A DNA stretch of 64,000 nucleotides from a virus. Each line of letters opens with the position of its first letter. Position 1 is the stretch's first letter. This document shows positions 3,246 to 15,422 of this stretch, one piece after another. The translations under genes were made by a program, and so were the position numbers. Under the pieces are notes generated by a model. That model had not been told where the DNA came from. It did no database searches and was given only the letters and a program-made list of their open reading frames with translations. The stretch lies in the IMG/VR virus record IMGVR_UViG_3300020473_000016. One strand, given 5' to 3'.

Positions 3246-4049
3246 TTATAAGTATGTAATGCCTTCATTAAATCCGAAATCATCATCTGCTGTTACCAGT
3301 AAATCATCAGCAGCATCAATGTTTCCGTCTTGGTTAATGTCAGTCTTTGCTTTAGGTGTATATGTACGAGTAATAGTTCTTCTACTTACCGCAGCATCAC
3401 CAATAGTCTCGTGAATAATTGCCTTGTTAATAACATCAGATGTACTGTAAGGACCGTACATATATGTCTTAAGAGTGAAGTTGAGTGTATATGTAATCCA
3501 CCTTCTGTTTAAGAAACTTTCATCCCACTCATCTTCGTAGTTAATGTTATTTAAAACGATTGCTATATCTCTCTTCTCATTCATATCAGGAATCATATTC
3601 AATGTTATTGAAAATGATGGTTGGAAATAAGGAAGAATTGATTCTAATATTTGTAGGGCATCATCTTGTGACTGTGCGATGATACCTAATTCAAATCCAA
3701 GATTATAAGGTACAGGTACATACTGAGTTCTTACTTCATCTTGATTATCATTAATAATAGTTTTGTACTTCTGTATAGGAGAAGTCTTTCTTTGAGGATC
3801 ATAATCAATACTGTTCATCTCAAAGTAAAGACGAGGAACAGTAATAGAAACCTTGCGTGTCGCAGACACCATCTGTTCTAAACGAACAAGAAACTTCTGT
3901 CTAGGACCATAAGCTAAAGGAACTTTACTCTCCTCAAGGACAGCTCCTGTGCTTGGATCTTTCTTCTTTATACTAATATTATTAAAGAGAGTACCAAAAG
4001 CAATAATTGATTTACGAGTTACCTCGTTATAAAAATGTGATCCTAACAT
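3246..4049 (-). CDS. gp15: Tail sheath stabiliser / tail completion protein
   Basis: Motifs FYNEVTRKSIIAFGTLFNNI, VPLAYGPRQKF and PVPYNLGFEL...ILPYFQP. Confidence 0.93.
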   Translation of the reverse strand: MLGSHFYNEVTRKSIIAFGTLFNNISIKKKDPSTGAVLEESKVPLAYGPRQKFLVRLEQMVSATRKVSITVPRLYFEMNSIDYDPQRKTSPIQKYKTIINDNQDEVRTQYVPVPYNLGFELGIIAQSQDDALQILESILPYFQPSFSITLNMIPDMNEKRDIAIVLNNINYEDEWDESFLNRRWITYTLNFTLKTYMYGPYSTSDVINKAIIHETIGDAAVSRRTITRTYTPKAKTDINQDGNIDAADDLLVTADDDFGFNEGITYL

Positions 4050-4933
4050 CAGATACTACCTGTAAAGTTACCAAATTCACCGAATGGATTACCTTCTGTC
4101 CAATCAATAAGATTGTCAGCAGCATCCTCGATTTCTCTATTTGCATCATACTCACTGTTTGTATTTTGTAGAGTGTCAAATGTAGACACTACCCAAACAG
4201 CACCACTACTATCACCAGTTAAAGATTCATTAGCAGAGAAGGTTCCTTTTCTATTAATGACCTGAAGTATTCTTGTAGAATTATCCCAAGACTTAACTTC
4301 TGCTTCAACTCCAGTTGTACCACCAGTAACTATCTCACCAACAGTAAAGTCTCCAGTTCCACCAACACCTAGTGTTAATGCAATGGCACTAGAGTATATA
4401 GTTTCTATCTCATCAATTTCTGCAACACCAGTATTGATCTCGTCTGACTGACCAATGTATAGTTCAGCAGTGATAGAATAGAACTGAATCTTACCAAACT
4501 GATAGAATGGATTTTCTAATTGAACGTATTTAATTTCATACAAATCTTTTGTTAATGGGAAGTACAATAAGTCTCCCTCATTAGGTCTACCAGCAACTGT
4601 TAGAGTAGGAGTATTAGCTGCTACTGCCTCATCCCAACGTCTAGTAGATACTTTAAAAATGATCTCATCACTTATTGTTAAACCAAATTTACTAATGATC
4701 TCATTGTTATCACCCCAACCTGCTACGTTTTGTAGTAGCATCTCTACTTGGAATTCATCTTGATACTTAGAATAGATGACATCATCCAATGTATTATCTT
4801 TTAGAATAGTTCTAGGAAGATAATAGATATCAGTTCCAAACAGCTTGATCTGTTCGTCAGCCAGATCCTGATACAGGTTCTGTTCACCGACGTGACCAGC
4901 GTAATAAGTTGGGAAGTAAGGACTAGTAGGCAT
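4049..4933 (-). CDS. gp14: Neck protein
   Basis: Motifs IKLFGTDIYYLPR and RPNEGDLLYFPLTKDLYEIKYV...PFYQFGK. Confidence 0.93.
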   Translation of the reverse strand: MPTSPYFPTYYAGHVGEQNLYQDLADEQIKLFGTDIYYLPRTILKDNTLDDVIYSKYQDEFQVEMLLQNVAGWGDNNEIISKFGLTISDEIIFKVSTRRWDEAVAANTPTLTVAGRPNEGDLLYFPLTKDLYEIKYVQLENPFYQFGKIQFYSITAELYIGQSDEINTGVAEIDEIETIYSSAIALTLGVGGTGDFTVGEIVTGGTTGVEAEVKSWDNSTRILQVINRKGTFSANESLTGDSSGAVWVVSTFDTLQNTNSEYDANREIEDAADNLIDWTEGNPFGEFGNFTGSI

Positions 4934-4934
4934 T

Positions 4935-5747
4935 TTATCCGATCATATCCATTGGTGGTATTGCATATTTAGATAGAACTTCTCCTTCAATCATTCTGAC
5001 AGCTGCTACACCATCGTCATATATTTCTTTACCATTAAGATTCATACCGCCTGGTAATTGAACATTCTGATATTTAATCAAGTTCTGACCCCACTGCTTC
5101 TTCATTAAAGCAGTAGCATATCTTTTAACAAACATATCATTATACATCTCAGTAGCATCAGTTGGATCAATCATCCTATGACACTCTATTAATAAGTTAG
5201 TTCCTACTTCTAGGAAATCCTTATCAATATCTAAGTATAAACGATCACGACGTTGTGTATATCTAAACTGTTGGAACGAACCATTGTTCAAAACCATATC
5301 TAATGTTTCAAGATATTGTTTAGTCATAAAATAATTTAAGATATCTAATGATCCAAATGCGTATAAGTCATTCAAGAACATTCGATACTCTATACCAAAT
5401 AAGTTAGAACGAATAGAGTTACCAACCAATCCATACACTTTACTAATACCAACTACATGAGCTGGTATGGGAATATAATTTGTATCTTCTGACCATGTAG
5501 TTGTTACAGCACCTTCTACCTTAGTAGAATCAGACTGTGCTGCAAGACGAGTTTTATCATCAGCAGTTATTGCATGGTACATATAGCACCGTTCCTGACC
5601 ATTGTAGCAATTCTCATTAAAGAATTGAAATGTGTCATCAATAACGTTATTTACTTGCTCATCATCAATATTAACCTGCAACACAGGTTCACCCAATTGC
5701 CTCTTGCAGTACGTTATTAGTTCTGCTTTTGATGTAGGTGATGCCAT
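4935..5747 (-). CDS. gp13: Neck protein
   Basis: Motifs LITYCKRQLGEPVLQVNID and KKQWGQNLIKYQNVQLPGG. Confidence 0.94.
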   Translation of the reverse strand: MASPTSKAELITYCKRQLGEPVLQVNIDDEQVNNVIDDTFQFFNENCYNGQERCYMYHAITADDKTRLAAQSDSTKVEGAVTTTWSEDTNYIPIPAHVVGISKVYGLVGNSIRSNLFGIEYRMFLNDLYAFGSLDILNYFMTKQYLETLDMVLNNGSFQQFRYTQRRDRLYLDIDKDFLEVGTNLLIECHRMIDPTDATEMYNDMFVKRYATALMKKQWGQNLIKYQNVQLPGGMNLNGKEIYDDGVAAVRMIEGEVLSKYAIPPMDMIG

Positions 5748-5754
5748 TAGATAC

Positions 5755-5790
5755 TAAAAATCCCTTCATACTATTTAGTAGAAGGGACTT
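5755..5790 (-). terminator. Rho-independent terminator with a late promoter inside its stem-loop
   Basis: Minus strand TCCCTTC-TACT-AAAT-AGTA-T-GAAGGGA followed by a run of T. Confidence 0.65.
5772..5778 (-). promoter_or_regulatory. T4-type late promoter (CTAAATA) for gp13
   Basis: TAAATA core about 25 nt upstream of the gp13 ATG. Confidence 0.7.
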
Positions 5791-5795
5791 TAAGA

Positions 5796-6005
5796 CTATT
5801 CTGCTGGTGGATTTGCTATGTCTGGAGTGATAGGAGGAGCACCTTCTTCTGGTTTTTCTTCCAGTAATCCCAGTGTTTCTAGACCACCTGTTAATTTTAA
5901 TTTGTATTCTTTTGCCTTTGCGAGATTCTCTTCGAGTTCTCTTATCTGAACTTCTGTCTTTTCAATCTGTTCAGTAAAGTTTTGTTTCAGTTGTGCTGGA
6001 TCCAT
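5796..6005 (-). CDS. Hypothetical coiled-coil protein
   Basis: ORF track; heptad pattern. Confidence 0.7.
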   Translation of the reverse strand: MDPAQLKQNFTEQIEKTEVQIRELEENLAKAKEYKLKLTGGLETLGLLEEKPEEGAPPITPDIANPPAE

Positions 6006-6011
6006 ATCTAA

Positions 6012-6551
6012 TCAAGGAATGAAGTTATAGTTTATTACAAATCTAGGTTTCTGTGTAGGTTTACTACTTGCATGGAATGTTAATCCATCAAATATAACAC
6101 ATCTACCTTTCTTTGGAGAGACAGTCTTATTTATACCGTACTCACCCATAGGATCTCCGTACCTCTTTTCACTGAAGTACGTATCTCCGTCACTGTCATT
6201 TACGTAGTATAAGCATACCATATGATCCTCTGGTATGTCAACATGCATCTGATCATATTCTTTGGTTCTATTACCAGGAGTTTGTAGGAAACACCTTGCT
6301 CGTATAACCTTAGATATACTTTGATCTGCATTGTGACATGCTTCAAATACTAATGGAAGGAACAAACCAGTATAGTCGCTAGTTGATTTACCATCCAACA
6401 AAAGCATATGAGAGAATCCTACTAATTGATCTGATCCATCTTCAACAAGGTTATCATGATACACCCATCTAAAATCAGTATCAAGTCTTAGAGTCTCTTC
6501 AATTAGATTTTGATAGTTTGGGTTAATACAGTCATCAATAATGTTCTTCAT
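6012..6551 (-). CDS. 2OG-Fe(II) oxygenase-like protein
   Basis: HxD (MHVD), distal H (FHASS) and 2OG-binding R (RFVINYN). Confidence 0.8.
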   Translation of the reverse strand: MKNIIDDCINPNYQNLIEETLRLDTDFRWVYHDNLVEDGSDQLVGFSHMLLLDGKSTSDYTGLFLPLVFEACHNADQSISKVIRARCFLQTPGNRTKEYDQMHVDIPEDHMVCLYYVNDSDGDTYFSEKRYGDPMGEYGINKTVSPKKGRCVIFDGLTFHASSKPTQKPRFVINYNFIP

Positions 6552-7152
6552 CAGGACCCTCTACATTCCAAGCAATATTTCCAGACACAGTTGTTCTCTC
6601 CTTATCAGTTGATCTAAATGGATATACAGCATGATTTGTTGTTGATGGGAACATAAGAAGTGTACCGTTCCATGAACTATCTACTGGCAGCACTTCCTTT
6701 TCCAATTGAAACGCTCCATCACTATAAAAATTGTCCCTCTCTTCAGGACCATATGGTATATCAACAAATATCACAAAACTAACAACACCAGAATGAACAT
6801 GCACTGGATTGTATTGATCTTTCTTCTGATAATTCACCCACAAATTATGCAACCTTATGAACCGAGTGATATCCTTTGTCTTATTAAACTCCCATGGACA
6901 TGTGGTATACACCCAATCCCATATTCCATTAACACGATCTAAAAGATATTCTTCTAATCCTGGACATTCATATTTCCATTCACTTAAACTTGATTGTTGA
7001 TCTAGAGCACCAGCCAATCTGGAATTCATATTCCATACCTCATCCAATCTTCTTTTCCTAGTATAATCAAGAAGACTATAGTAGATGTCTTGTGGAAGTT
7101 TCTCTGCTATAAAGTTTAAATTACTTTGACTGTGTATATTACTGTCTTTCAT
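6535..7152 (-). CDS. 2OG-Fe(II) oxygenase-like protein (HxH type)
   Basis: Motifs LWVNYQ..NPVHVHSG, FPSTTNHAVYPF and RTTVSGNI. Confidence 0.82.
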   Translation of the reverse strand: MKDSNIHSQSNLNFIAEKLPQDIYYSLLDYTRKRRLDEVWNMNSRLAGALDQQSSLSEWKYECPGLEEYLLDRVNGIWDWVYTTCPWEFNKTKDITRFIRLHNLWVNYQKKDQYNPVHVHSGVVSFVIFVDIPYGPEERDNFYSDGAFQLEKEVLPVDSSWNGTLLMFPSTTNHAVYPFRSTDKERTTVSGNIAWNVEGPDEEHY

Positions 7153-7646
7153 GAATATAAATCTGCACTTAATGAGTAACGTTTTTCATCTTCCGTTCCT
7201 TTACCTGCCATGTGTGGTAAGTTTGATGGAAATATAAACCATGTAAATAATTTCTTAGGTAGATGGTATGGATCATGATTTGGCATAGGGAACATAGCAG
7301 TTCCAGATGATCCAGGTAATTTTAAATACATTATACCAGATAAGGTATATGGATTTTCCAAATTGTGAGCGTGCATATATGGTTCTTTAGTATTTCCTTT
7401 CCAATCAACATATATCCACGAACTTATTTTATAATCAAATACATTCATATTCCAATATCTAGAACATGAATCGTAATAAGATAATCTAAGTTTTTCAATA
7501 ACTGGAATTTGATAATCTAAAAAGGTATCCTCAGTTTTTGCAACAATAGGATTATCTTGATACTCTGTATTATTAATAAAATTTATAAGAGTATCTACCT
7601 CATCATTATCTAATTGACAAGGATATTCTTTAATACCTAATACCAT
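7149..7646 (-). CDS. 2OG-Fe(II) oxygenase-like protein (HxH type)
   Basis: Motifs HAH...SGIMYL, FPSNLPH and RYSLSAD. Confidence 0.75.
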   Translation of the reverse strand: MVLGIKEYPCQLDNDEVDTLINFINNTEYQDNPIVAKTEDTFLDYQIPVIEKLRLSYYDSCSRYWNMNVFDYKISSWIYVDWKGNTKEPYMHAHNLENPYTLSGIMYLKLPGSSGTAMFPMPNHDPYHLPKKLFTWFIFPSNLPHMAGKGTEDEKRYSLSADLYS

Positions 7647-8236
7647 CGTCTTGATTGTTTACTGTTAATGTGATCATGAATTTCAGGAATACAAAATGAG
7701 AATGCTACTGTAGTTCTATAACCATTACCAATTAAACTATTTGGTGAATGACCTTTGTGTTCCCAATTAGATGGAATGAATACACCAGTGTTAGGAATAT
7801 ACGGTGTATAATGAAGTTTACCATCTGGACTCTTACAAACAAACTCACCACCCCACTCATGATTCCACCGCATTTGATTAAACAATATAAATGTCCATAC
7901 CTCATCTAATGGATAATCTTTATGAAATAATGTATTCTGTCCAGGAGTTTGTCCGTTCGCATGAATCTTACATAACTTCAATGGTTTTTTAAGATGCTTC
8001 ATCATCTTTAATTTAATTGTAGTAGCACATTTTGCAAACATCAAATCTGTTCTTAAAGGATGTTGCCATGATACTGGATCACCTTTACCATAAGATGCAT
8101 TGTTAAGTGTCCATATAGCTAGACTATTTACAGCAGGTTGAGTACGGTCAAAGTATTGCCAAAGACCTTCAAACTCTTCTCTGCTTAAAACAGTTTCAAT
8201 AACAATAGGTTCGTTCATTTGCCCCACCATAACCAT
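7637..8236 (-). CDS. 2OG-Fe(II) oxygenase-like protein
   Basis: Motifs FHKD, WGGEF, IPSNWEHKG and RTTVAF. Confidence 0.8.
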   Translation of the reverse strand: MVMVGQMNEPIVIETVLSREEFEGLWQYFDRTQPAVNSLAIWTLNNASYGKGDPVSWQHPLRTDLMFAKCATTIKLKMMKHLKKPLKLCKIHANGQTPGQNTLFHKDYPLDEVWTFILFNQMRWNHEWGGEFVCKSPDGKLHYTPYIPNTGVFIPSNWEHKGHSPNSLIGNGYRTTVAFSFCIPEIHDHINSKQSRRWY

Positions 8237-8805
8237 CCTGTAATAATATATTTCTCATGTTCCTCTGATATTTGTCCTCTGTGTTTATGAGTTAATCCAG
8301 CAGGAAATAAAACTGTGTTACCTTTCTTTGCTTCTACAGTATAATCCTGATAATAGAATTGAGTTCCTCCATTAGGAACATCATTCAAGTATGTAATAAA
8401 AACAAAAGCTTTATCACAACCATCTAAACCAGATGCATCCACATGCCATGTATAAAAACCTTCACCAGGTTTATAATATTGTATCTGTGGTAACTGTTTC
8501 ATTGTAAACTCTTGGTTTCCAACTTCTAAGGTTTGTAAGTATTCTTGTATAAAACCATCCAATGCTTTTTGATATTCATCATATTTAAAGTCACTAGGTT
8601 TTCCAAACTTTCCAGCATCACTTATAGAGAAATCTGTACTCTTCTTAATATCTGGAATTATACTCCCACCACCAACTCTACCAGCATATGTCATCTCACC
8701 TTTATCAGCTATGTGAAAAAGCTCTATGAGTTTATCACATATACTAGGATCTTCTAATTGATATTCGTTAATAAAATTCATTTGTATGGCGGACCTTGTA
8801 CCCAT
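8215..8805 (-). CDS. Prolyl-4-hydroxylase-like 2OG-Fe(II) oxygenase
   Basis: Motifs QIQYYKPGEGFYTWHVD, YLNDVPNGGTQF, FPAGLTHKHRG and KYIITGW. Confidence 0.87.
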   Translation of the reverse strand: MGTRSAIQMNFINEYQLEDPSICDKLIELFHIADKGEMTYAGRVGGGSIIPDIKKSTDFSISDAGKFGKPSDFKYDEYQKALDGFIQEYLQTLEVGNQEFTMKQLPQIQYYKPGEGFYTWHVDASGLDGCDKAFVFITYLNDVPNGGTQFYYQDYTVEAKKGNTVLFPAGLTHKHRGQISEEHEKYIITGWLWWGK

Positions 8806-9404
8806 CCTACTAAGGATTTTCTACACCCAGAAGTAACTTCTCTTACTCTATGTGGTGTGTCACTCATGAATATTATAGCATCTTTTTTCTTTAATGGAAT
8901 AATCTTCTTCTCATCTATCACCATTTCAAATTCACCACCTTCAAAATCATCATTCAATAGTATAGTAAAACTAATCTTACGTATTCTATTATTCTGTCTC
9001 TTACCTTGCATCCAATTAGATTCATCTATATGCCAATCATAGTAACCACCCTTTTCATATACAGTATCTTGCATAGGTTCTATGAAATCAATATCATAAT
9101 TCCATTCACATTTTTCATTAGCAAATCTAATAAACCCATCTACTAATCCATACAATCGTTCATCATCTATAAAACGAGATTTTGATTCTCTATTTACTAG
9201 ATCAAGTTCTCCTTTATTTTCTAAACCTTCTACCTTAGAAGATTCATAATCATCTATAGGTTTACTTTCACGATCTGTACCTTGACATTTTTTAAGTTGT
9301 CTCTCTATAAGATCAAAATATTCATCTTCCATATTGATGATTATATACTGGTGTTTAAATGAATTCATTTTTGACACACCATTATATGAACACCATTCCA
9401 CCAT
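8778..9404 (-). CDS. PKHD/prolyl-hydroxylase-like 2OG-Fe(II) oxygenase
   Basis: Motifs GGYYDWHID, RKISFTILLNDDFEGGEF and PHRVREVTSGCRKSLVGW. Confidence 0.88.
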   Translation of the reverse strand: MVEWCSYNGVSKMNSFKHQYIIINMEDEYFDLIERQLKKCQGTDRESKPIDDYESSKVEGLENKGELDLVNRESKSRFIDDERLYGLVDGFIRFANEKCEWNYDIDFIEPMQDTVYEKGGYYDWHIDESNWMQGKRQNNRIRKISFTILLNDDFEGGEFEMVIDEKKIIPLKKKDAIIFMSDTPHRVREVTSGCRKSLVGWVQGPPYK

Positions 9405-11113
9405 CCATTAGGATCTTCTGGTATACCAGTTAATATCTTACGATCAAACATAACTTTAAGATCATTTTCTTTAACCCATATATTTGCTGACTCTACTACA
9501 CCCATAAAATTAGCATCATCTATTACTATTATAAACTGATCATCCATAATTGTATAGAGGTATGTTAAATTATCATATTGTTGCTGTGGGTCATGATCAG
9601 CATCATAGAAAATAATATTTGCTTTCTTATTTTCCATAGTATGTTCATCACGAATAATATTAAAATCTGCCTGAGTTAGATCCTGAATACTTTTCTCATG
9701 AAAGACCTGATTCTTTTTCATACCTTTAAAGAATGCACCTTTAGGATTATTCATTTTAAATCCTTTATGTCCATATACTTTACCACCACTATCCCAACTA
9801 TCCTCGTCACGGAATGGAGCAATGTCTTCTTCTGAATAATTATCAACAGCAAACGCTGGTATATCTCTATCCATTGTTGCAGCAAAGAATGTACTGCCAG
9901 CAGCAACACCTAATTCTAAATACACAGCATCTTCTTTGGAACATAAGTTATTCAGAAAATGTCTAATAATATTTGATGATAAACCTTCGTAATTAAATCC
10001 TTCTGGATTAAACTTACTCTCTCCTATTGCAGCCTTATTAATAGAATCGAGAACTAGTTCTATATCCTTATCCATAGTTCTTTCATTCTTCTTCATCCTA
10101 GAATGAATAACTGAATCGCAATAATTACAATCCCAACAATCAAACTTACATGTCTTAATCTTATCTCTCCAGATATCAATGGGTTTCTCTTGTAATGTAG
10201 TATCTTCAATGTATTCATTAAACTGAGGAAATAATAATTCTTCATTAGTATCCCATCTCTTAATGATCTCCATTGATTCCATTAGACGCATAGCATTTTC
10301 TCTACCATGCATCTTGAATACATCAATACCTAAATCAACAAACTCTTCCCAATCTTCTTTCCATGGAGGTAATGCTGCTTGCTTTAAAGCATTAGCTGGA
10401 TCTCTTTCATCCCATCCAGAACATGACACTCTACTAATAGAATCATTAAAATACTGAGGATCATCTTCACCTCTCTCCATGTTGTAATGATAGTGTTCTG
10501 GCATGATCGGACATCCACCCCAACACCATTCATTAGCAAGTAATGATATCTTAACTGGTTTACCTATCTCAGCACAATATTCTTTTGCTTTCTTAATTCT
10601 TAGTAGTTGATCATGATCTCTCATTAGATCACGATCTAAATTAATATAATTAAATCCTGCCTTTGCTAAATTAACTATCTCATTTGCTCTTGTTACTTCT
10701 CTTAGTATAGTATTTTTAATATAGAGTTCTGGAAATTCTTTCTGTATCTGTCCAGTTAACAACCATGTTGTATGAGGTATCGTAGCAATACGAACACCCA
10801 TATCATATACTCCTTTAAAATTCTCAATAAAAAGATCCAAATTCTTTTGATTAGGAAGAACTTGAATATTATTAAATGTTGCTGATAATGGAATACCTGT
10901 TTCTTGAGAAACGTAAAGAGCATTGAATGTTGTCTCTCTCATATCCCCATCAATAGTATCCCCCATTGCGTCTTGAACGAATGGAGGCATTCGACATGTA
11001 AAATATATGTCGTAAATATGTTTCTTATACTGATTCAGGAACGGTATAAAAGTTCCTACTACAAAATCTTCAGGTAATTTTGTATTCAGCGGGATCGAGA
11101 ACCTTTGTACCAT
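9365..11113 (-). CDS. U32-family-like Cys-rich (putative Fe-S) domain fused to a class I SAM-dependent methyltransferase
   Basis: N-terminal part: INLDRD, LLANEWCWGGCP, VFKMHGRE and CKFDCWDCNYC. C-terminal part: YLELGVAAGST, AVDN, IIFYDADH and IIVIDD. Confidence 0.65.
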   Translation of the reverse strand: MVQRFSIPLNTKLPEDFVVGTFIPFLNQYKKHIYDIYFTCRMPPFVQDAMGDTIDGDMRETTFNALYVSQETGIPLSATFNNIQVLPNQKNLDLFIENFKGVYDMGVRIATIPHTTWLLTGQIQKEFPELYIKNTILREVTRANEIVNLAKAGFNYINLDRDLMRDHDQLLRIKKAKEYCAEIGKPVKISLLANEWCWGGCPIMPEHYHYNMERGEDDPQYFNDSISRVSCSGWDERDPANALKQAALPPWKEDWEEFVDLGIDVFKMHGRENAMRLMESMEIIKRWDTNEELLFPQFNEYIEDTTLQEKPIDIWRDKIKTCKFDCWDCNYCDSVIHSRMKKNERTMDKDIELVLDSINKAAIGESKFNPEGFNYEGLSSNIIRHFLNNLCSKEDAVYLELGVAAGSTFFAATMDRDIPAFAVDNYSEEDIAPFRDEDSWDSGGKVYGHKGFKMNNPKGAFFKGMKKNQVFHEKSIQDLTQADFNIIRDEHTMENKKANIIFYDADHDPQQQYDNLTYLYTIMDDQFIIVIDDANFMGVVESANIWVKENDLKVMFDRKILTGIPEDPNGWWNGVHIMVCQK

Positions 11114-11321
11114 ATTCTTCTAGAACTTTATTAATAAAAATACCTTCGTTGTCACTATGTTCTACTAGGAGTTGCTTGTTCTCCATTGCGATTTGTCTGA
11201 GTTTTACTCTGTCTAGATCCTTATCTTTATTTTCAAGATTGTACTTATCATACATCATGAAATGTACAATAGGCAGAAGCTCATCATACCGTTCTGCATC
11301 AGCGTGCCAAACACCTGCCAT
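11070..11321 (-). CDS. Hypothetical protein
   Basis: ORF track; coupled to its neighbours. Confidence 0.65.
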   Translation of the reverse strand: MAGVWHADAERYDELLPIVHFMMYDKYNLENKDKDLDRVKLRQIAMENKQLLVEHSDNEGIFINKVLEEYGTKVLDPAEYKIT

Positions 11322-12200
11322 CTATTTTTCCCCCTCTTTTAAATGTAGCTGTCCTGTATATTTATGTGCTTCAAACTTAGGCATTGTTATACCTTCTGAT
11401 TCTATCTGTGCTTTTATAGCAGGAGCGAATGTTTTATTTAATTTATCCATACCACCACCAACAAGAGCAGAGAATTGTATTGCTACTTCTAAACACTTAA
11501 CTTGATCCTGTTCTGGCATATCCAAAATAGAAGTCATGTTACCAGTACCTATTCTACCATATGATACAATGTCCATAGCAGCCTGTTTACCCATACGAGC
11601 AATCCAGTATATTCTTTCTTCCTCTTCTTGTTCTTCTATGAAATATTCTAAAGGATGCTGTTCATCAATATGTTCATGAACAACTTTCAAGAAATGTGTC
11701 ATTTCTATTTCTGACTGACGTAGTTTTCTTTTCCAAATACCTATGTCATAATCATTCTTTTCTAAATCAATCTGAACAAATCCAGCATCAATTTCATCTC
11801 CACCTTCTTCCTCTATATTATCAAGAGTACGAAGGAATTTCTTTCTTAATAATTCTGCTTTTCTAAGACTATGCCTATTTTCTATATAAGCATGATACCT
11901 AGTTTCTAACTCCATTAATGCCTGACGCACTTTTCTCCATGGAGTCAGTTGCATATCAACAACAAAATGCTGACTTTGATATTCAGTCATACCGCTATTG
12001 AAACGCATACAACCTTCTAAGATATCAAAATCTTCCTTTGAGAAATCAAATTCCTCAACGAAAGACTTAGCTAAACTTATCTCTCCAGTATCAGAACTGA
12101 CTATGTTATTAACATCAGCAATGATATCAGATAATTCTGCGTTATAGGATAATCTAGTTTTCTTTGGATCTCTGTTTGTTAATTCAGAACTTAAAGACAT
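11322..12200 (-). CDS. Hypothetical coiled-coil protein of the putative tail-tip module
   Basis: ORF track; long heptad segment (RQALMELETRY...LRKAELLRKK). Confidence 0.75.
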   Translation of the reverse strand: MSLSSELTNRDPKKTRLSYNAELSDIIADVNNIVSSDTGEISLAKSFVEEFDFSKEDFDILEGCMRFNSGMTEYQSQHFVVDMQLTPWRKVRQALMELETRYHAYIENRHSLRKAELLRKKFLRTLDNIEEEGGDEIDAGFVQIDLEKNDYDIGIWKRKLRQSEIEMTHFLKVVHEHIDEQHPLEYFIEEQEEEERIYWIARMGKQAAMDIVSYGRIGTGNMTSILDMPEQDQVKCLEVAIQFSALVGGGMDKLNKTFAPAIKAQIESEGITMPKFEAHKYTGQLHLKEGEK

Positions 12201-12999
12201 ATGCGTCTACCTCATACTCTGGTTTACGATCCCAGTCAGTATCAGATATAGTGCGACCCATTTCAATTGCTTGCATCTGAGGCATCATAATACCGATGTG
12301 ATCTTCATATAATATATTTAGGTCCCATACAGAATCCGCATTTTCAAACTTCTTCTTAAGTTCTTGATACGTGACAAGCATGGTAGACAGATTATCTTCA
12401 TATTCTTCTGCCTTAGTCAAAATTTTATTAGACAAATCTGTTTTAGTTATACTTCTTTTCTCAGCAAGATAATCAAGGAATGGAGTTTTACTTCCATTAG
12501 CTCCTTTTTCTCTCAACCATTCTCTTGCTTCATGCTTCTGTATTTCCCAAGAAGCAGTTTCTAATTCTGTTGTATCTCTTAAATTTTTAATCCTTACATT
12601 AAACTCATCATCAATAATTTCTATAGCAAAAAGTTTCATGAAATCAGTAATTTCTTTTTTGATTTCATCTGTTAATTCTACTGGTACTTTAAGAACACCG
12701 CCAGCAGGAGTCCATGCTTGAGCAACACCTTGTTGGTTAACAGTTGCCATAACCTTACCATAAGGTCTAACTTCTGAGAAGAAGTTAGATCCATTTAGTG
12801 CTTGCTTTTTGGTAACTTCCTTATACTTATGTTCCCACTCTTTAGAGATAACTTGGAATATATTCTCACTTATTTCTACACATGCGAAATGCATCAACGA
12901 AAATATTTCGTTGTAATGAAGTCTAGAGTCAGCAGTCTCAGCAATATTGACATACTGCTCAGGCTTGATTTCTCTTTCGTTGACGATTAAGTATCTCAT
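12184..12999 (-). CDS. Putative tail-fibre assembly chaperone-like protein
   Basis: Pattern ELETASWEIQKHEAREW...TPFLDYLAEKRS...KILTKAEEY resembles fibre-assembly proteins (recalled similarity only). Confidence 0.5.
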   Translation of the reverse strand: MRYLIVNEREIKPEQYVNIAETADSRLHYNEIFSLMHFACVEISENIFQVISKEWEHKYKEVTKKQALNGSNFFSEVRPYGKVMATVNQQGVAQAWTPAGGVLKVPVELTDEIKKEITDFMKLFAIEIIDDEFNVRIKNLRDTTELETASWEIQKHEAREWLREKGANGSKTPFLDYLAEKRSITKTDLSNKILTKAEEYEDNLSTMLVTYQELKKKFENADSVWDLNILYEDHIGIMMPQMQAIEMGRTISDTDWDRKPEYEVDAYVFKF

Positions 13000-13002
13000 T
13001 GT

Positions 13003-14289
13003 TTATTGTGCGTATCTAGCTGTAACAGATGCTGCTGCTGAACAGCAACCACCTGATGATTGTCCATAATGTCCTTTGGGTCTTGTTGTTGCACCCATAT
13101 TAGTCTCAACGTCAGTTGAATAATCCCACTTAGTAGTATGGTTGTTCTGCTGACCGTCATATTGTCCCATCATATAACCCCAGTCCTGACCCATCATCAT
13201 GTTCTCTTCTCCGTAAGAACGAACCTTAGATCCATTCTTAATACCAGATCCTGAAGAACCATTGTACTTAGTCCAAGGAGTTGTAACGTTGTTACCAGTA
13301 CCACAGTAGAAGTGACCCCACTTAGAAGGTAGCGGTTTACAAACTCCATCAGGAGCAGCAGATGAAGACCAGTTACCCCAACTATCGTTAGAATGATCAC
13401 AGTAATATCTGTTACCTGAGAATGAAGCCCATGTTCTATCTTCATCAGCACATGAAGCAGTATGATCATTACCAGAAGGTGAGTTACCTGCCTGATACAT
13501 GATCTCTGAAGGGAAGTGTAACTTACCTACAGCAGAGTTACCTCCACCCAAGTTGTATCCATGCTGTTGTTTTTGTGCAGATGCACATGAGTTTCTGTCT
13601 CTGTTAACAGGCATGTTCCAACCACCAACAGTACCATAACCCATGATTCCTCTTGGGTCATCTCCTTCCCAACCGTAGTTGTGAGGTGAATATGTACCAC
13701 CACCAGGGTTACTACCTGATGTACCAAACATTCGTCTCATTCCAGTATGGAGGTTGATCGAAGATGTATGGTTTGATGATCCAGTGAATGCGTTAACACA
13801 TCCATGACCATACCCAAAGTAATCACTCCAAGTAACGTCAGCATATGTTAGTGCTCTATCAATTTGCTCACCACAGTAGAAAGTAACGTCTGTAGCGTGC
13901 CAAGTTTTGTTTACTGTTCTCCAAGGATTAGATCCTTTATATCCAGCAACCAAGTAACCATGTGTAATTAAACTTCTGTATCTAAATCCTGTTAAGGGTG
14001 AAGAAACAGCATTGTTCATACCAGGATAAGCCCAGAAAGTTCCGTTCTCTCCATCAGATACCAGATAAGCACCCCTTGTCTCATTAGTTGCTCCTGGTAC
14101 ACCACCTCCTACGTCATCCCATTCAGAACCATTCCAAATCTGTGCTTTCGCATCACTAGAGTTCCAAATCATCTGACCTATATTAGGAGATGCAGGTCTA
14201 CTGCCACTGGCAAAAGACGGCAACTTCAAACCTTGAGTCTGAAGTGACGCATTACCTGTAACAACAGTTCCAACTGTTAATTGAGACAT
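13003..14289 (-). CDS. Putative beta-propeller (Kelch-like) virion or tail-tip protein
   Basis: The N-terminus resembles fibre proteins (RPASPNIGQMIWNS...QIWNGSEW). It is followed by about 45-aa Gly/aromatic blade-like repeats (HGYLVAGY, HGYNLGGG, WGYMMGQY). Confidence 0.55.
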   Translation of the reverse strand: MSQLTVGTVVTGNASLQTQGLKLPSFASGSRPASPNIGQMIWNSSDAKAQIWNGSEWDDVGGGVPGATNETRGAYLVSDGENGTFWAYPGMNNAVSSPLTGFRYRSLITHGYLVAGYKGSNPWRTVNKTWHATDVTFYCGEQIDRALTYADVTWSDYFGYGHGCVNAFTGSSNHTSSINLHTGMRRMFGTSGSNPGGGTYSPHNYGWEGDDPRGIMGYGTVGGWNMPVNRDRNSCASAQKQQHGYNLGGGNSAVGKLHFPSEIMYQAGNSPSGNDHTASCADEDRTWASFSGNRYYCDHSNDSWGNWSSSAAPDGVCKPLPSKWGHFYCGTGNNVTTPWTKYNGSSGSGIKNGSKVRSYGEENMMMGQDWGYMMGQYDGQQNNHTTKWDYSTDVETNMGATTRPKGHYGQSSGGCCSAAASVTARYAQ

Positions 14290-14311
14290 GACTACCTATC
14301 TTTATTAATTC

Positions 14312-14318
14312 TATTTAT
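14312..14318 (-). promoter_or_regulatory. T4-type late promoter (ATAAATA)
   Basis: About 23 nt upstream of the ATG at 14289; overlaps the stop of the upstream gene. Confidence 0.7.
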
Positions 14319-14665
14319 GACTTAGGGTATTTATCTTTGACAGCAGCGACAGATTGATACCACTGACCATCTTTTCCAGGAACTACCCCTTGTTCCATAT
14401 CATGCCAAAGTTTATCGAACTGCTCTGCGATATCTGGGTACTCGACTCTACGAGCAAGATCATAAGCAGGTGGAGAATGTTCGATTTTTTGAACTTGCTG
14501 CAATGCCAAATTATATGTAAAGTCAGCAATATCTTGACCAGCACCTACTTCACCTAGCCATTCAACCCACATGAAATTTGAGTGTACCTCAAACCTTTCA
14601 TCCTGAGAACCTTTTATGAACTGAAGGACAGTTCCGTTTTCTTTGTTTACAAGTACTTGATACAT
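14315..14665 (-). CDS. Tail-fibre assembly chaperone-like protein
   Basis: C-terminal YxxxRxxEYPxIxEQ(F/L)DxLW...VKxKYPK motif typical of fibre-associated chaperones. Confidence 0.6.
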   Translation of the reverse strand: MYQVLVNKENGTVLQFIKGSQDERFEVHSNFMWVEWLGEVGAGQDIADFTYNLALQQVQKIEHSPPAYDLARRVEYPDIAEQFDKLWHDMEQGVVPGKDGQWYQSVAAVKDKYPKS

Positions 14666-14666
14666 T

Positions 14667-15422
14667 TTAGGTATACTCCCATACTATTACGCAACCAGCA
14701 CCGCCGTTGCCGTTGTTATGTGCATGTCCATTTTGTGAATAATATCCATAAGCACCACCAGAACCCCATTGTCCATGAGTACTTTCAGCACCATCACTTG
14801 AGTTATGATGGTTTGATCCTGCCTTATGCCAGAATGTAGATCCACTACAACCTTCTCTGTTGGAACCGTGTGACATTTCACCAGGTCCGCCAGGTAAGTT
14901 TATATCTCCACCAGAAGCATCTCCTCCTCTTCCACCTTCATATGGGTTATCTGTGTAACCACCAGCACCACCAGAAGCAGTACAATATGAACCAAAAGAT
15001 GAAGATCCTCCTGAACCTCCACGTCCACCATTTCTAGCATATCCACCTCCACCACCATATGTGTAGTTGACACTGTTTACACTAGAAACATCAATATATT
15101 TAATTGCAGTAGCACCACCGCCACCACCAGCACCACGATAGTTATTGTCATTACAACGACAACCACCGCCTCCACCAGTGACGTAAACTAATACATGACC
15201 GCAACCAGCTGGTTTTGTCCACGTACCAGATCCACCAGAGGTTGATCTAGATGACCATGATCCATTCTGTGATGTATATACTTGAATGCCAATTAAAGCA
15301 CCAGGTGTTGTCATCGCAGAATAACTACTGCCATTCCATATTCTTAATTCATCGTTTTGCAGATCCATTATATTAACTCCTGCGGAGTTTTGGATCTGGT
15401 CTACTTTTAATATTCCAGCCAT
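14667..15422 (-). CDS. Glycine-rich tail-fibre accessory protein
   Basis: Motifs ALIGIQVYT, GTWTKPAGC..VLVYVTGGGGG and GGAGCVIVWEY. Confidence 0.7.
   Translation of the reverse strand: MAGILKVDQIQNSAGVNIMDLQNDELRIWNGSSYSAMTTPGALIGIQVYTSQNGSWSSRSTSGGSGTWTKPAGCGHVLVYVTGGGGGCRCNDNNYRGAGGGGGATAIKYIDVSSVNSVNYTYGGGGGYARNGGRGGSGGSSSFGSYCTASGGAGGYTDNPYEGGRGGDASGGDINLPGGPGEMSHGSNREGCSGSTFWHKAGSNHHNSSDGAESTHGQWGSGGAYGYYSQNGHAHNNGNGGAGCVIVWEYT

Follow-up and report, generated by a model that had tools for sequence, protein, structure and literature searches.

What does a marine phage gain from a methyltransferase fusion and six oxygenases encoded among the genes for its fibres and neck? The question is raised by positions 5,796 to 14,318 of a 64,000-nucleotide stretch of DNA (the window) from IMG/VR virus record IMGVR_UViG_3300020473_000016, a T4-like cyanomyovirus. 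An initial annotation, made from the letters alone, had described a single late operon here and proposed that hydroxylation plus O-methylation by its enzymes decorates fibre or tip proteins or makes a small modifying group. We find that the region consists of two units: a conserved cassette of the genes A351, B352, C353 and E354, and a variable slot of 2-oxoglutarate (2OG)-Fe(II) oxygenases before gp13. The enzyme at the centre of the proposed pathway is real and travels with a fibre-type protein, whereas the pathway as first drawn joins two units of unequal standing.

A conserved cassette travels with a fibre-type gene

Twelve open reading frames (ORFs), all on the minus strand, fill the stretch between a glycine-rich tail-fibre-type gene (phrog_863; 14667-15422), which adjoins an ORF of 3968 aa, and the neck genes gp13 (4935-5747) and gp14 (4049-4933). 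Both the position between fibre genes and gp13 and the close packing had been described correctly: from 14289 to 5796 the genes overlap or abut, with no gap above 6 nt. Because the genes further upstream are packed just as tightly, the upstream boundary of the unit is set solely by a promoter motif. A megablast search of the region against phage records returned no match. The cassette and a small companion gene are laid out as follows.

13003..14289, minus strand: A351, 428 aa (T4-GC351, phrog_1417), with a fibre-type module (about 60 aa) at the N-terminus and a C-terminal domain that is conserved and rich in beta structure
12184..12999, minus strand: B352, 271 aa (T4-GC352, phrog_1604), a constant cassette member
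11322..12200, minus strand: C353, 292 aa (T4-GC353, phrog_1409), the most constant neighbour of the U32-like domain
11070..11321, minus strand: D83, 83 aa, present in closer relatives only
9365-11113, minus strand: E354, 582 aa (T4-GC354), a U32-like/O-methyltransferase fusion
10094..11113, minus strand: E354 N-terminal domain (aa 1-340), a U32-like triosephosphate isomerase (TIM) barrel by predicted structure
9365..10024, minus strand: E354 C-terminal domain (aa about 364-582), a class I catechol/TrmR-type O-methyltransferase by predicted structure

The four cassette genes have been catalogued as T4-GC351 to 354, annotated as hypothetical, and found together in P-SSM4, P-HM2, Syn19, Syn33 and S-ShM2 (Sullivan et al. 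2010). Hundreds of phages share this conserved core. E354 is present in 126 phage records, and the order A351-B352-C353-E354 upstream of S69-gp13-gp14 was kept in all 80 of the 80 IMG/VR loci found with E354 (E354 identity 56-97%), a count of loci that are not phylogenetically independent. Roughly 75 further loci, found via a stand-alone U32-like domain, carry the cassette in split form: tandem A351 paralogs (one to three) are accompanied by C353, B352 and a radical SAM gene, the U32-like domain and the methyltransferase are genes of their own, and one further gene and a DUF401/CitMHS-type transporter complete the set. The radical SAM protein (332 aa; L104:5001-5999) lies between B352 and the U32-like gene and has an equivalent in about 70 of the split-cassette loci; the fused cassette of cyanophages has no such gene. 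Since the cassette is co-inherited in fused and split form, is late, and in T4-like phages always accompanies a fibre-type protein, it behaves as a real system. The expectation of a conserved neighbourhood across phages holds for the cassette, which is linked to a fibre-type protein in every related locus examined, and is weakened for the oxygenases, which are optional and in cultured phages mostly distant.

The A351 paralogs have in common a fibre-type N-terminus with RPxSPxxG and a C-terminal core that is conserved, and several Tyr and Trp residues invariant in the family could be modification sites. Family C-termini (window 13003-13060) read G-x-SSG-x-C and are preceded by invariant GEEN and GQD...Y...Y...QNN blocks. 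AlphaFold gave an unusable model for A351 (predicted local distance difference test score, pLDDT, 36), so the 'propeller' label first given to the protein is neither confirmed nor rejected; sequence and profile searches against the PDB returned nothing usable for A351. B352 and C353 matched no Pfam family and no PDB relative, leaving their labels 'chaperone-like' and 'coiled-coil' uncheckable, and an Atlas search with C353 gave no named neighbour. A complex prediction for E354 residues 1-345 with C353 scored 0.00, which speaks neither for nor against binding.

E354 joins a U32-like barrel to a catechol-type O-methyltransferase

We modelled E354 with AlphaFold2 from a 65-sequence alignment (pLDDT 91) and compared the model with known structures in an all-against-representatives search. 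Residues 1-277 matched the U32 protein Mk0906 best (5d88; Z 16.7, root-mean-square deviation 3.2 over 226/247 residues), with other TIM barrels at Z 12.5 or below. Language-model neighbours of the domain fall in clusters in which 20% of members belong to PF01136; a search of the PDB sequences with the E354 profile found nothing. Across the 51-61 relatives compared, seven cysteines are invariant (Cys197, 201, 231, 322, 326, 329 and 332), spaced as C197-x3-C201-x29-C231 and C322-x3-C326-x2-C329-x2-C332, and E195, H207, K267 and R271 of the N-terminal domain are also conserved. These cysteines plausibly bind 4Fe-4S clusters, and E354 may act as an Fe-S hydroxylase. The fusion announced by the initial annotation is therefore borne out by predicted structure and not by Pfam; because the Pfam profile failed and the canonical cysteine motif is missing, we call the domain U32-like rather than a member of U32.

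The comparison with characterised peptidase U32 hydroxylases (TrhP/YegQ, RlhA, UbiU/UbiV; Mk0906, PDB 5d88) runs both ways. E354 has their TIM-barrel fold in common, about 4 Z units above other barrels, together with a conserved Glu ahead of a group of invariant cysteines, possible ligands of a 4Fe-4S cluster, and a tendency to work with partner genes. Unlike them, it has no PF01136 match, a different cysteine pattern and no U32 C-terminal domain, and its barrel, whose activity is predicted, is fused to a methyltransferase, carried by phages and expressed late. Among the papers searched, none linked U32 enzymes to cyanophages.

Residues 364-582 match catechol-type O-methyltransferases (TomG, Z 15.8; COMT, 15.4; TrmR, 15.0-15.2), and the top 50 structural matches are almost all of this type, CCoAOMT included (Z 13.7-15.8). 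TrmR is tied in these scores with a dozen catechol O-methyltransferases. By sequence, Methyltransf_24 reached 17.5 bits with E354, below its 26.3 cut-off, and PF13578 was matched by 24 of 65 E354 relatives (best 7e-11). E354 carries the S-adenosylmethionine motif ELGVAAGS, of which ELGxxxG is conserved among relatives, and D504, D532 and N535, a candidate Asp-Asp-Asn metal triad, are conserved at 88-90%. Because its kin are metal-dependent catechol-type enzymes, the methyltransferase domain may act on a substrate with neighbouring oxygen atoms, for example a hydroxylated aromatic side chain.

The closest functional parallel is the trmR-trhP2-trhP1 (yrrMNO) operon of B. subtilis, which makes mo5U34 in tRNA by the route U34 to ho5U to mo5U (PMC6599085). 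E354 follows the same logic, a U32-type hydroxylase (predicted in E354) encoded together with a catechol-type O-methyltransferase, and TrmR is among the top structural matches. Unlike the operon, E354 is one polypeptide linked to a fibre-type protein and to B352 and C353; we saw no tRNA-directed elements and no extra Pfam domain in E354, and the likeness to TrmR is not specific. Library-wide, both halves of E354 also exist as separate proteins. P0125 (553 aa, metagenomic) fuses the U32-like domain to DUF7483 in place of the methyltransferase, and P0253 fuses the E354-type methyltransferase to a Glyco_transf_90 domain; for P0164 no viral locus was found.

Conserved late signals bracket the region

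The region was said to lie between a T4-type late promoter and a terminator, and to be expressed late. Both signals are present:

14312..14319, minus strand: T4-type late-promoter-like motif CATAAATA, matching 7/8 of the T4 consensus and ending 23 nt before the first ATG
5755..5790, minus strand: intrinsic terminator hairpin and U-run, -17.9 kcal/mol, z = -5.05, then U5

The promoter motif overlaps the stop codon of the upstream gene and is weak by itself, because the perfect box TATAAATA is not enriched in the window; conservation adds to it, since ATAAATA persists 22-31 nt upstream of the A351 start amid altered flanking sequence in 29 of 31 homologous loci that have diverged. The terminator hairpin is conserved in 13 of 20 distinct homologous S69-gp13 gaps, and compensatory changes affect 4 of the 10 stem pairs across 12 loci. 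In every case the loop of the hairpin contains (C/A)TAAATA (CTAAATA in the window), placed to serve gp13, so that the hairpin looks like a combined terminator and late-promoter element for that gene. Further examples of such loops lie at L001:12231-12279, L047:6479-6528 and L074:2774-2846.

Expression data from a cultured relative agree. In P-HM2 RNA-seq, PHM2_098 belongs to cluster Late E and PHM2_099, 100 and 101 to Late D, with the flanking fibre gene and g13 in Late E (PMC5082946, S2 Table). Conserved signals and late homologs together make the bracket and the late timing of the cassette well supported, and we infer that one transcript spans the whole unit in this phage. Metatranscriptome contigs from four studies match fragments of A351, B352, C353, E354, O1, O3, O5 and O6/S69 at 90-100% identity; such contigs are blind to level, strand and transcript ends and may include DNA carry-over, and we do not take them as proof of a single transcript. 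A scan for sigma-70 promoters gave 37 promoter-like sites against 44 in shuffled sequence, which lends no support to internal early promoters. Two further late-type motifs are possible late promoters internal to the unit: a perfect TATAAATA at 6128-6135 (minus), within O6 and 123 nt before S69, and CATAAATA at 11359-11366 (minus), within the end of C353 and 38 nt upstream of D83.

Six unrelated oxygenases occupy a variable slot before gp13

Between E354 and gp13 lie six oxygenase genes and one small neck gene.

8778..9404, minus strand: O1, 208 aa, 2OG-Fe(II) oxygenase, PiuC/PKHD-like; H125-x-D127, H185, R195
8215..8805, minus strand: O2, 196 aa, 2OG-Fe(II) oxygenase, weakly prolyl-4-hydroxylase-like
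7637..8236, minus strand: O3, 199 aa, 2OG-Fe(II) oxygenase, weak Pfam match, weakly FlmC-like; H105-x-D107, H160, R174
7149..7646, minus strand: O4, 165 aa, PF13759/TIGR02466-type oxygenase; H92-x-H94, H145, R156
6535..7152, minus strand: O5, 205 aa, PF13759/TIGR02466-type oxygenase; H118-x-H120, H174, R186
6012..6551, minus strand: O6, 179 aa, 2OG-Fe(II) oxygenase, weakly FlmC-like; H103-x-D105, H160, R170
5796..6005, minus strand: S69, 69 aa (phrog_580), neck-module gene

All six candidates stand as different 2OG-Fe(II) oxygenases. Three exceed the Pfam cut-off of 27 bits (O1, 56.6; O2, 43.4; O5, 42.7) and three fall below it (O3, 18.7; O4, 23.2; O6, 25.7), yet all six have ligand sets: an invariant HxD...H...R/K within their own families for O1, O2, O3 and O6, and HxH...H...R, as in PF13759 relatives, for O4 and O5. 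From these residues, all six are apparently active. Pairwise identity among them is 24% or less, which makes them something other than recent duplicates. Internal Met codons at 9368, 8781 and 8218 would allow ATGA-type start/stop overlaps at E354/O1, O1/O2 and O2/O3. S69 was rejected as a member of the enzyme set and assigned to the neck module, because it stands before gp13 in all relatives, with or without enzymes.

The slot varies from 0 to 7 oxygenases among the 55 loci with both ends, and one or more follow E354 in roughly 40 of them. Relatives with E354 identity of at least 71% have six or seven; those at 59-63% have between one and four, in some cases alongside a ferredoxin-like gene or a DUF401 transporter. 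O2 is the oxygenase most often kept beside E354, with O2-like copies persisting down to 59% E354 identity. A first pass with tblastn had suggested that oxygenases are missing from the majority of distant relatives; we dropped this when iterated profiles and Pfam showed many unassigned slot genes to be 2OG oxygenases. In one cyanophage clade a 4Fe-4S ferredoxin-like ORF stands between two PF13759 oxygenases in the slot (L063:4985-5776, L066:12456-13112).

Among known systems, the tandem array gp49-gp58 of Syn9 (PMC2938197) is likewise a run, in a T4-like cyanophage, of several 2OG-Fe(II) dioxygenases that are unrelated to one another. The array in the window differs in being shorter, at six genes, and in lying inside a late fibre/neck module directly behind the E354 cassette; no JmjC or halogenase member was detected in O1-O6. 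O1 and O2 most resemble protein hydroxylases of the prolyl 4-hydroxylase (P4H) and PiuC/PKHD types (chlorovirus and bacterial P4H), with weak similarity (E 1e-4 to 0.3). As in the setting of prolyl and lysyl hydroxylases, glycine-rich and fibre-type proteins are encoded next door; unlike that setting, substrate repeats were not found, and O3-O6 come from other lineages. A precedent is known from bacteria, where dioxygenase clusters encoded together with phage tail-collar and collagen-like proteins have been predicted to hydroxylate them (PMC2938197).

U32-like relatives outside cyanophages

The Ralstonia jumbo phage RP31 has a C353-like gene (E 5e-11) immediately before its U32-like gene and a DUF401 transporter after it. 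Since C353 adjoins the U32-like domain even here, it is the most constant partner of that domain. Two loci come from bacterial metagenome-assembled genomes (MAGs). At one (L085:1456-10662) the U32-like gene lies with a canonical U32 gene, an AsnB (asparagine-synthase)-like gene and a B12-radical-SAM gene, and at another (L088:7914-11719) with an SBP_bac_5 solute-binding gene and a Methyltransf_2 O-methyltransferase. An independent bacterial operon thus pairs the U32-like gene with a different O-methyltransferase family. One Deltaproteobacteria MAG holds three U32-like copies.

Proposed fibre-tip tailoring and its alternatives

We tentatively favour the reading that the region encodes a late oxidative tailoring set in the fibre/neck region, in which E354 modifies an A351-type fibre-tip protein and the oxygenases add to the modification. 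Such a set would have two layers. One would comprise A351, B352 and C353 with E354, a very divergent seven-cysteine relative of the oxygen-independent Fe-S hydroxylases of U32, joined to a cation-dependent catechol-type O-methyltransferase; the other would be six unrelated, clade-specific 2OG-Fe(II) oxygenases that follow E354 in one tightly packed translational run. E354 would convert C-H to C-OH and then to C-OCH3 during virion assembly, the likeliest target being the A351-type fibre-tip protein conserved alongside it, or a group that this protein carries, and the oxygenases could make further, optional O2-dependent hydroxylations on the same or neighbouring fibre proteins. The gene order, the folds, the conserved residues, the conserved linkage and the late timing of homologs are shown by the data; the Fe-S clusters, the hydroxylase activity, the order of the reactions and, above all, the target of E354 are what we infer here. 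Virion tailoring is plausible and partly supported for the cassette and weakly supported for the oxygenases, whose link to the cassette is favoured by their recurrence in the slot and by translational packing and opposed by a wide distribution away from E354. A bolder form of the idea, that T4-like marine phages rewrite the chemistry of their own receptor-binding fibre tips, with a new phage-specific branch of O2-independent Fe-S hydroxylases (E354), helped by C353 and B352, putting methoxy groups on A351-type tips and some lineages adding up to seven O2-dependent hydroxylases, we consider unlikely. In that form, host recognition or the durability of the virion would be tuned after translation.

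A number of observations weigh against the tailoring reading. As to the enzyme, E354 gave no PF01136 match above the cut-off (1 of 65 family members matched, at E 0.033), and its cysteine spacing departs from the four-cysteine CX6CX15CX3/4C motif of UbiU/V and other U32 groups (10.1101/587956). As to the target, A351 was not seen beside the U32-like gene in the bacterial MAG loci or in RP31, so that A351 is not a universal substrate. The bacterial relatives sit in natural-product-like clusters without a fibre protein, and in three phage lineages a DUF401/CitMHS-type transporter follows the U32-like gene (L084:8019-9059, which is RP31 ORF135; L104:8579-9592; L055:5553-6593). The three cyanomyovirus virion proteomes all come from phages without the cassette, and genes packed in T4-type late regions need not share a pathway. 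The remaining objections concern the oxygenases. The slot is empty in 13 of 55 loci, which makes these genes optional. P-HM2 has no 2OG oxygenase in the table of Sullivan 2010, and in the 16 reference genomes covered by that study about 45 kb separates gp13 from the main 2OG clusters. Genes resembling O2 are present in 433 phage records, at many genome positions and in cultured phages usually far from E354. Tandem arrays of unrelated dioxygenases in cyanophages were described in 2010 and read as secondary-metabolite genes (PMC2938197).

The same facts feed the view that the two units are merely co-located: the cassette would have a separate job, and the six oxygenases would be accessory genes gathered in a permissive, hyperplastic slot before gp13, with host or secondary metabolites, the 2-oxoglutarate pool or damaged nucleic acid as their targets. 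A slot with 0-7 oxygenases, joined in some loci by fibre-type genes, a transporter or a ferredoxin-like gene, fits this view, as do the unrelated lineages of O1-O6 (24% identity or less), the excess of records with O2-like genes (433 versus 126 for E354), the distance of the main 2OG clusters from gp13 and the ten tandem dioxygenases of Syn9, which has no cassette (PMC2938197). It leaves aside, however, that oxygenases recur directly behind E354 in several diverged clades, with O2-like genes down to 59% E354 identity, that no intergenic space separates E354, O1, O2 and O3, which ATGA-type overlaps join in one translation run, and that P-SSM2 too has a PiuC-type oxygenase among its fibre genes. 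We regard mere co-location as somewhat unlikely.

Distinctly less probable is that the enzymes (the U32-like domain, the O-methyltransferase and the oxygenases, with a radical SAM enzyme and a ferredoxin-like protein at other loci) make or decorate a diffusible compound or protein-derived cofactor that A351-type proteins bind or use, and that these proteins are not themselves decorated for host recognition. The bacterial neighbours of the U32-like gene (canonical U32, asparagine-synthase-like and B12-radical-SAM genes, or a solute-binding protein with Methyltransf_2) point that way, and the nearest methyltransferase folds are small-molecule catechol O-methyltransferases; secondary-metabolite roles were proposed for cyanophage dioxygenase arrays by Iyer et al. 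(PMC2938197). A small-molecule substrate is also hinted at by the DUF401/CitMHS-type transporter found behind the U32-like gene in RP31, split-cassette phages and one cyanophage clade, and one may speculate that this transporter supplies a carboxylate; the cassette/oxygenase region of the window contains no such transporter. Late timing and a fixed place in the virion structural module argue against a diffusible product, as do the constant linkage in phages to one to three copies of a fibre-type protein and the lack of any nonribosomal peptide synthetase, polyketide synthase or precursor peptide seen in the window. If nucleic acid is the substrate, E354 would unite the TrhP/TrmR route (U34 to ho5U to mo5U) in a single chain or be an RlhA-type rRNA hydroxylase, tuning translation late in infection or marking phage nucleic acid, with its place among fibre genes incidental. 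All characterised U32 hydroxylases of macromolecules act on pyrimidine C5 in RNA, trmR shares one B. subtilis operon with trhP1 and trhP2 (PMC6599085), and TrmR is among the best structural matches (Z 15.0-15.2); but a dozen catechol O-methyltransferases score alike, E354 has neither the U32 C-terminal (tRNA-side) domain nor a Pfam U32 match, and the window contains no tRNA gene. An RNA role would also leave the strict linkage to A351, B352 and C353 and the late timing unexplained, and we consider it improbable.

Cyanomyoviruses kill a large share of the ocean's main phototrophs, and fibre tips set host range. If the cassette does tailor a fibre-tip protein, phage-host specificity would gain a new layer, and this would be the first role of a U32-type hydroxylase outside RNA and quinone chemistry. 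It also offers a concrete hypothesis for the long-unexplained 2OG oxygenases of cyanophages. By its sequence relatives, the cassette appears to define a family of Fe-S enzymes that is abundant yet unstudied, its detectable relatives numbering more than 1,300, and the cassette is carried by the cultured phages P-HM2, Syn19, Syn33, S-ShM2, S-CAM4 and S-RIM2.

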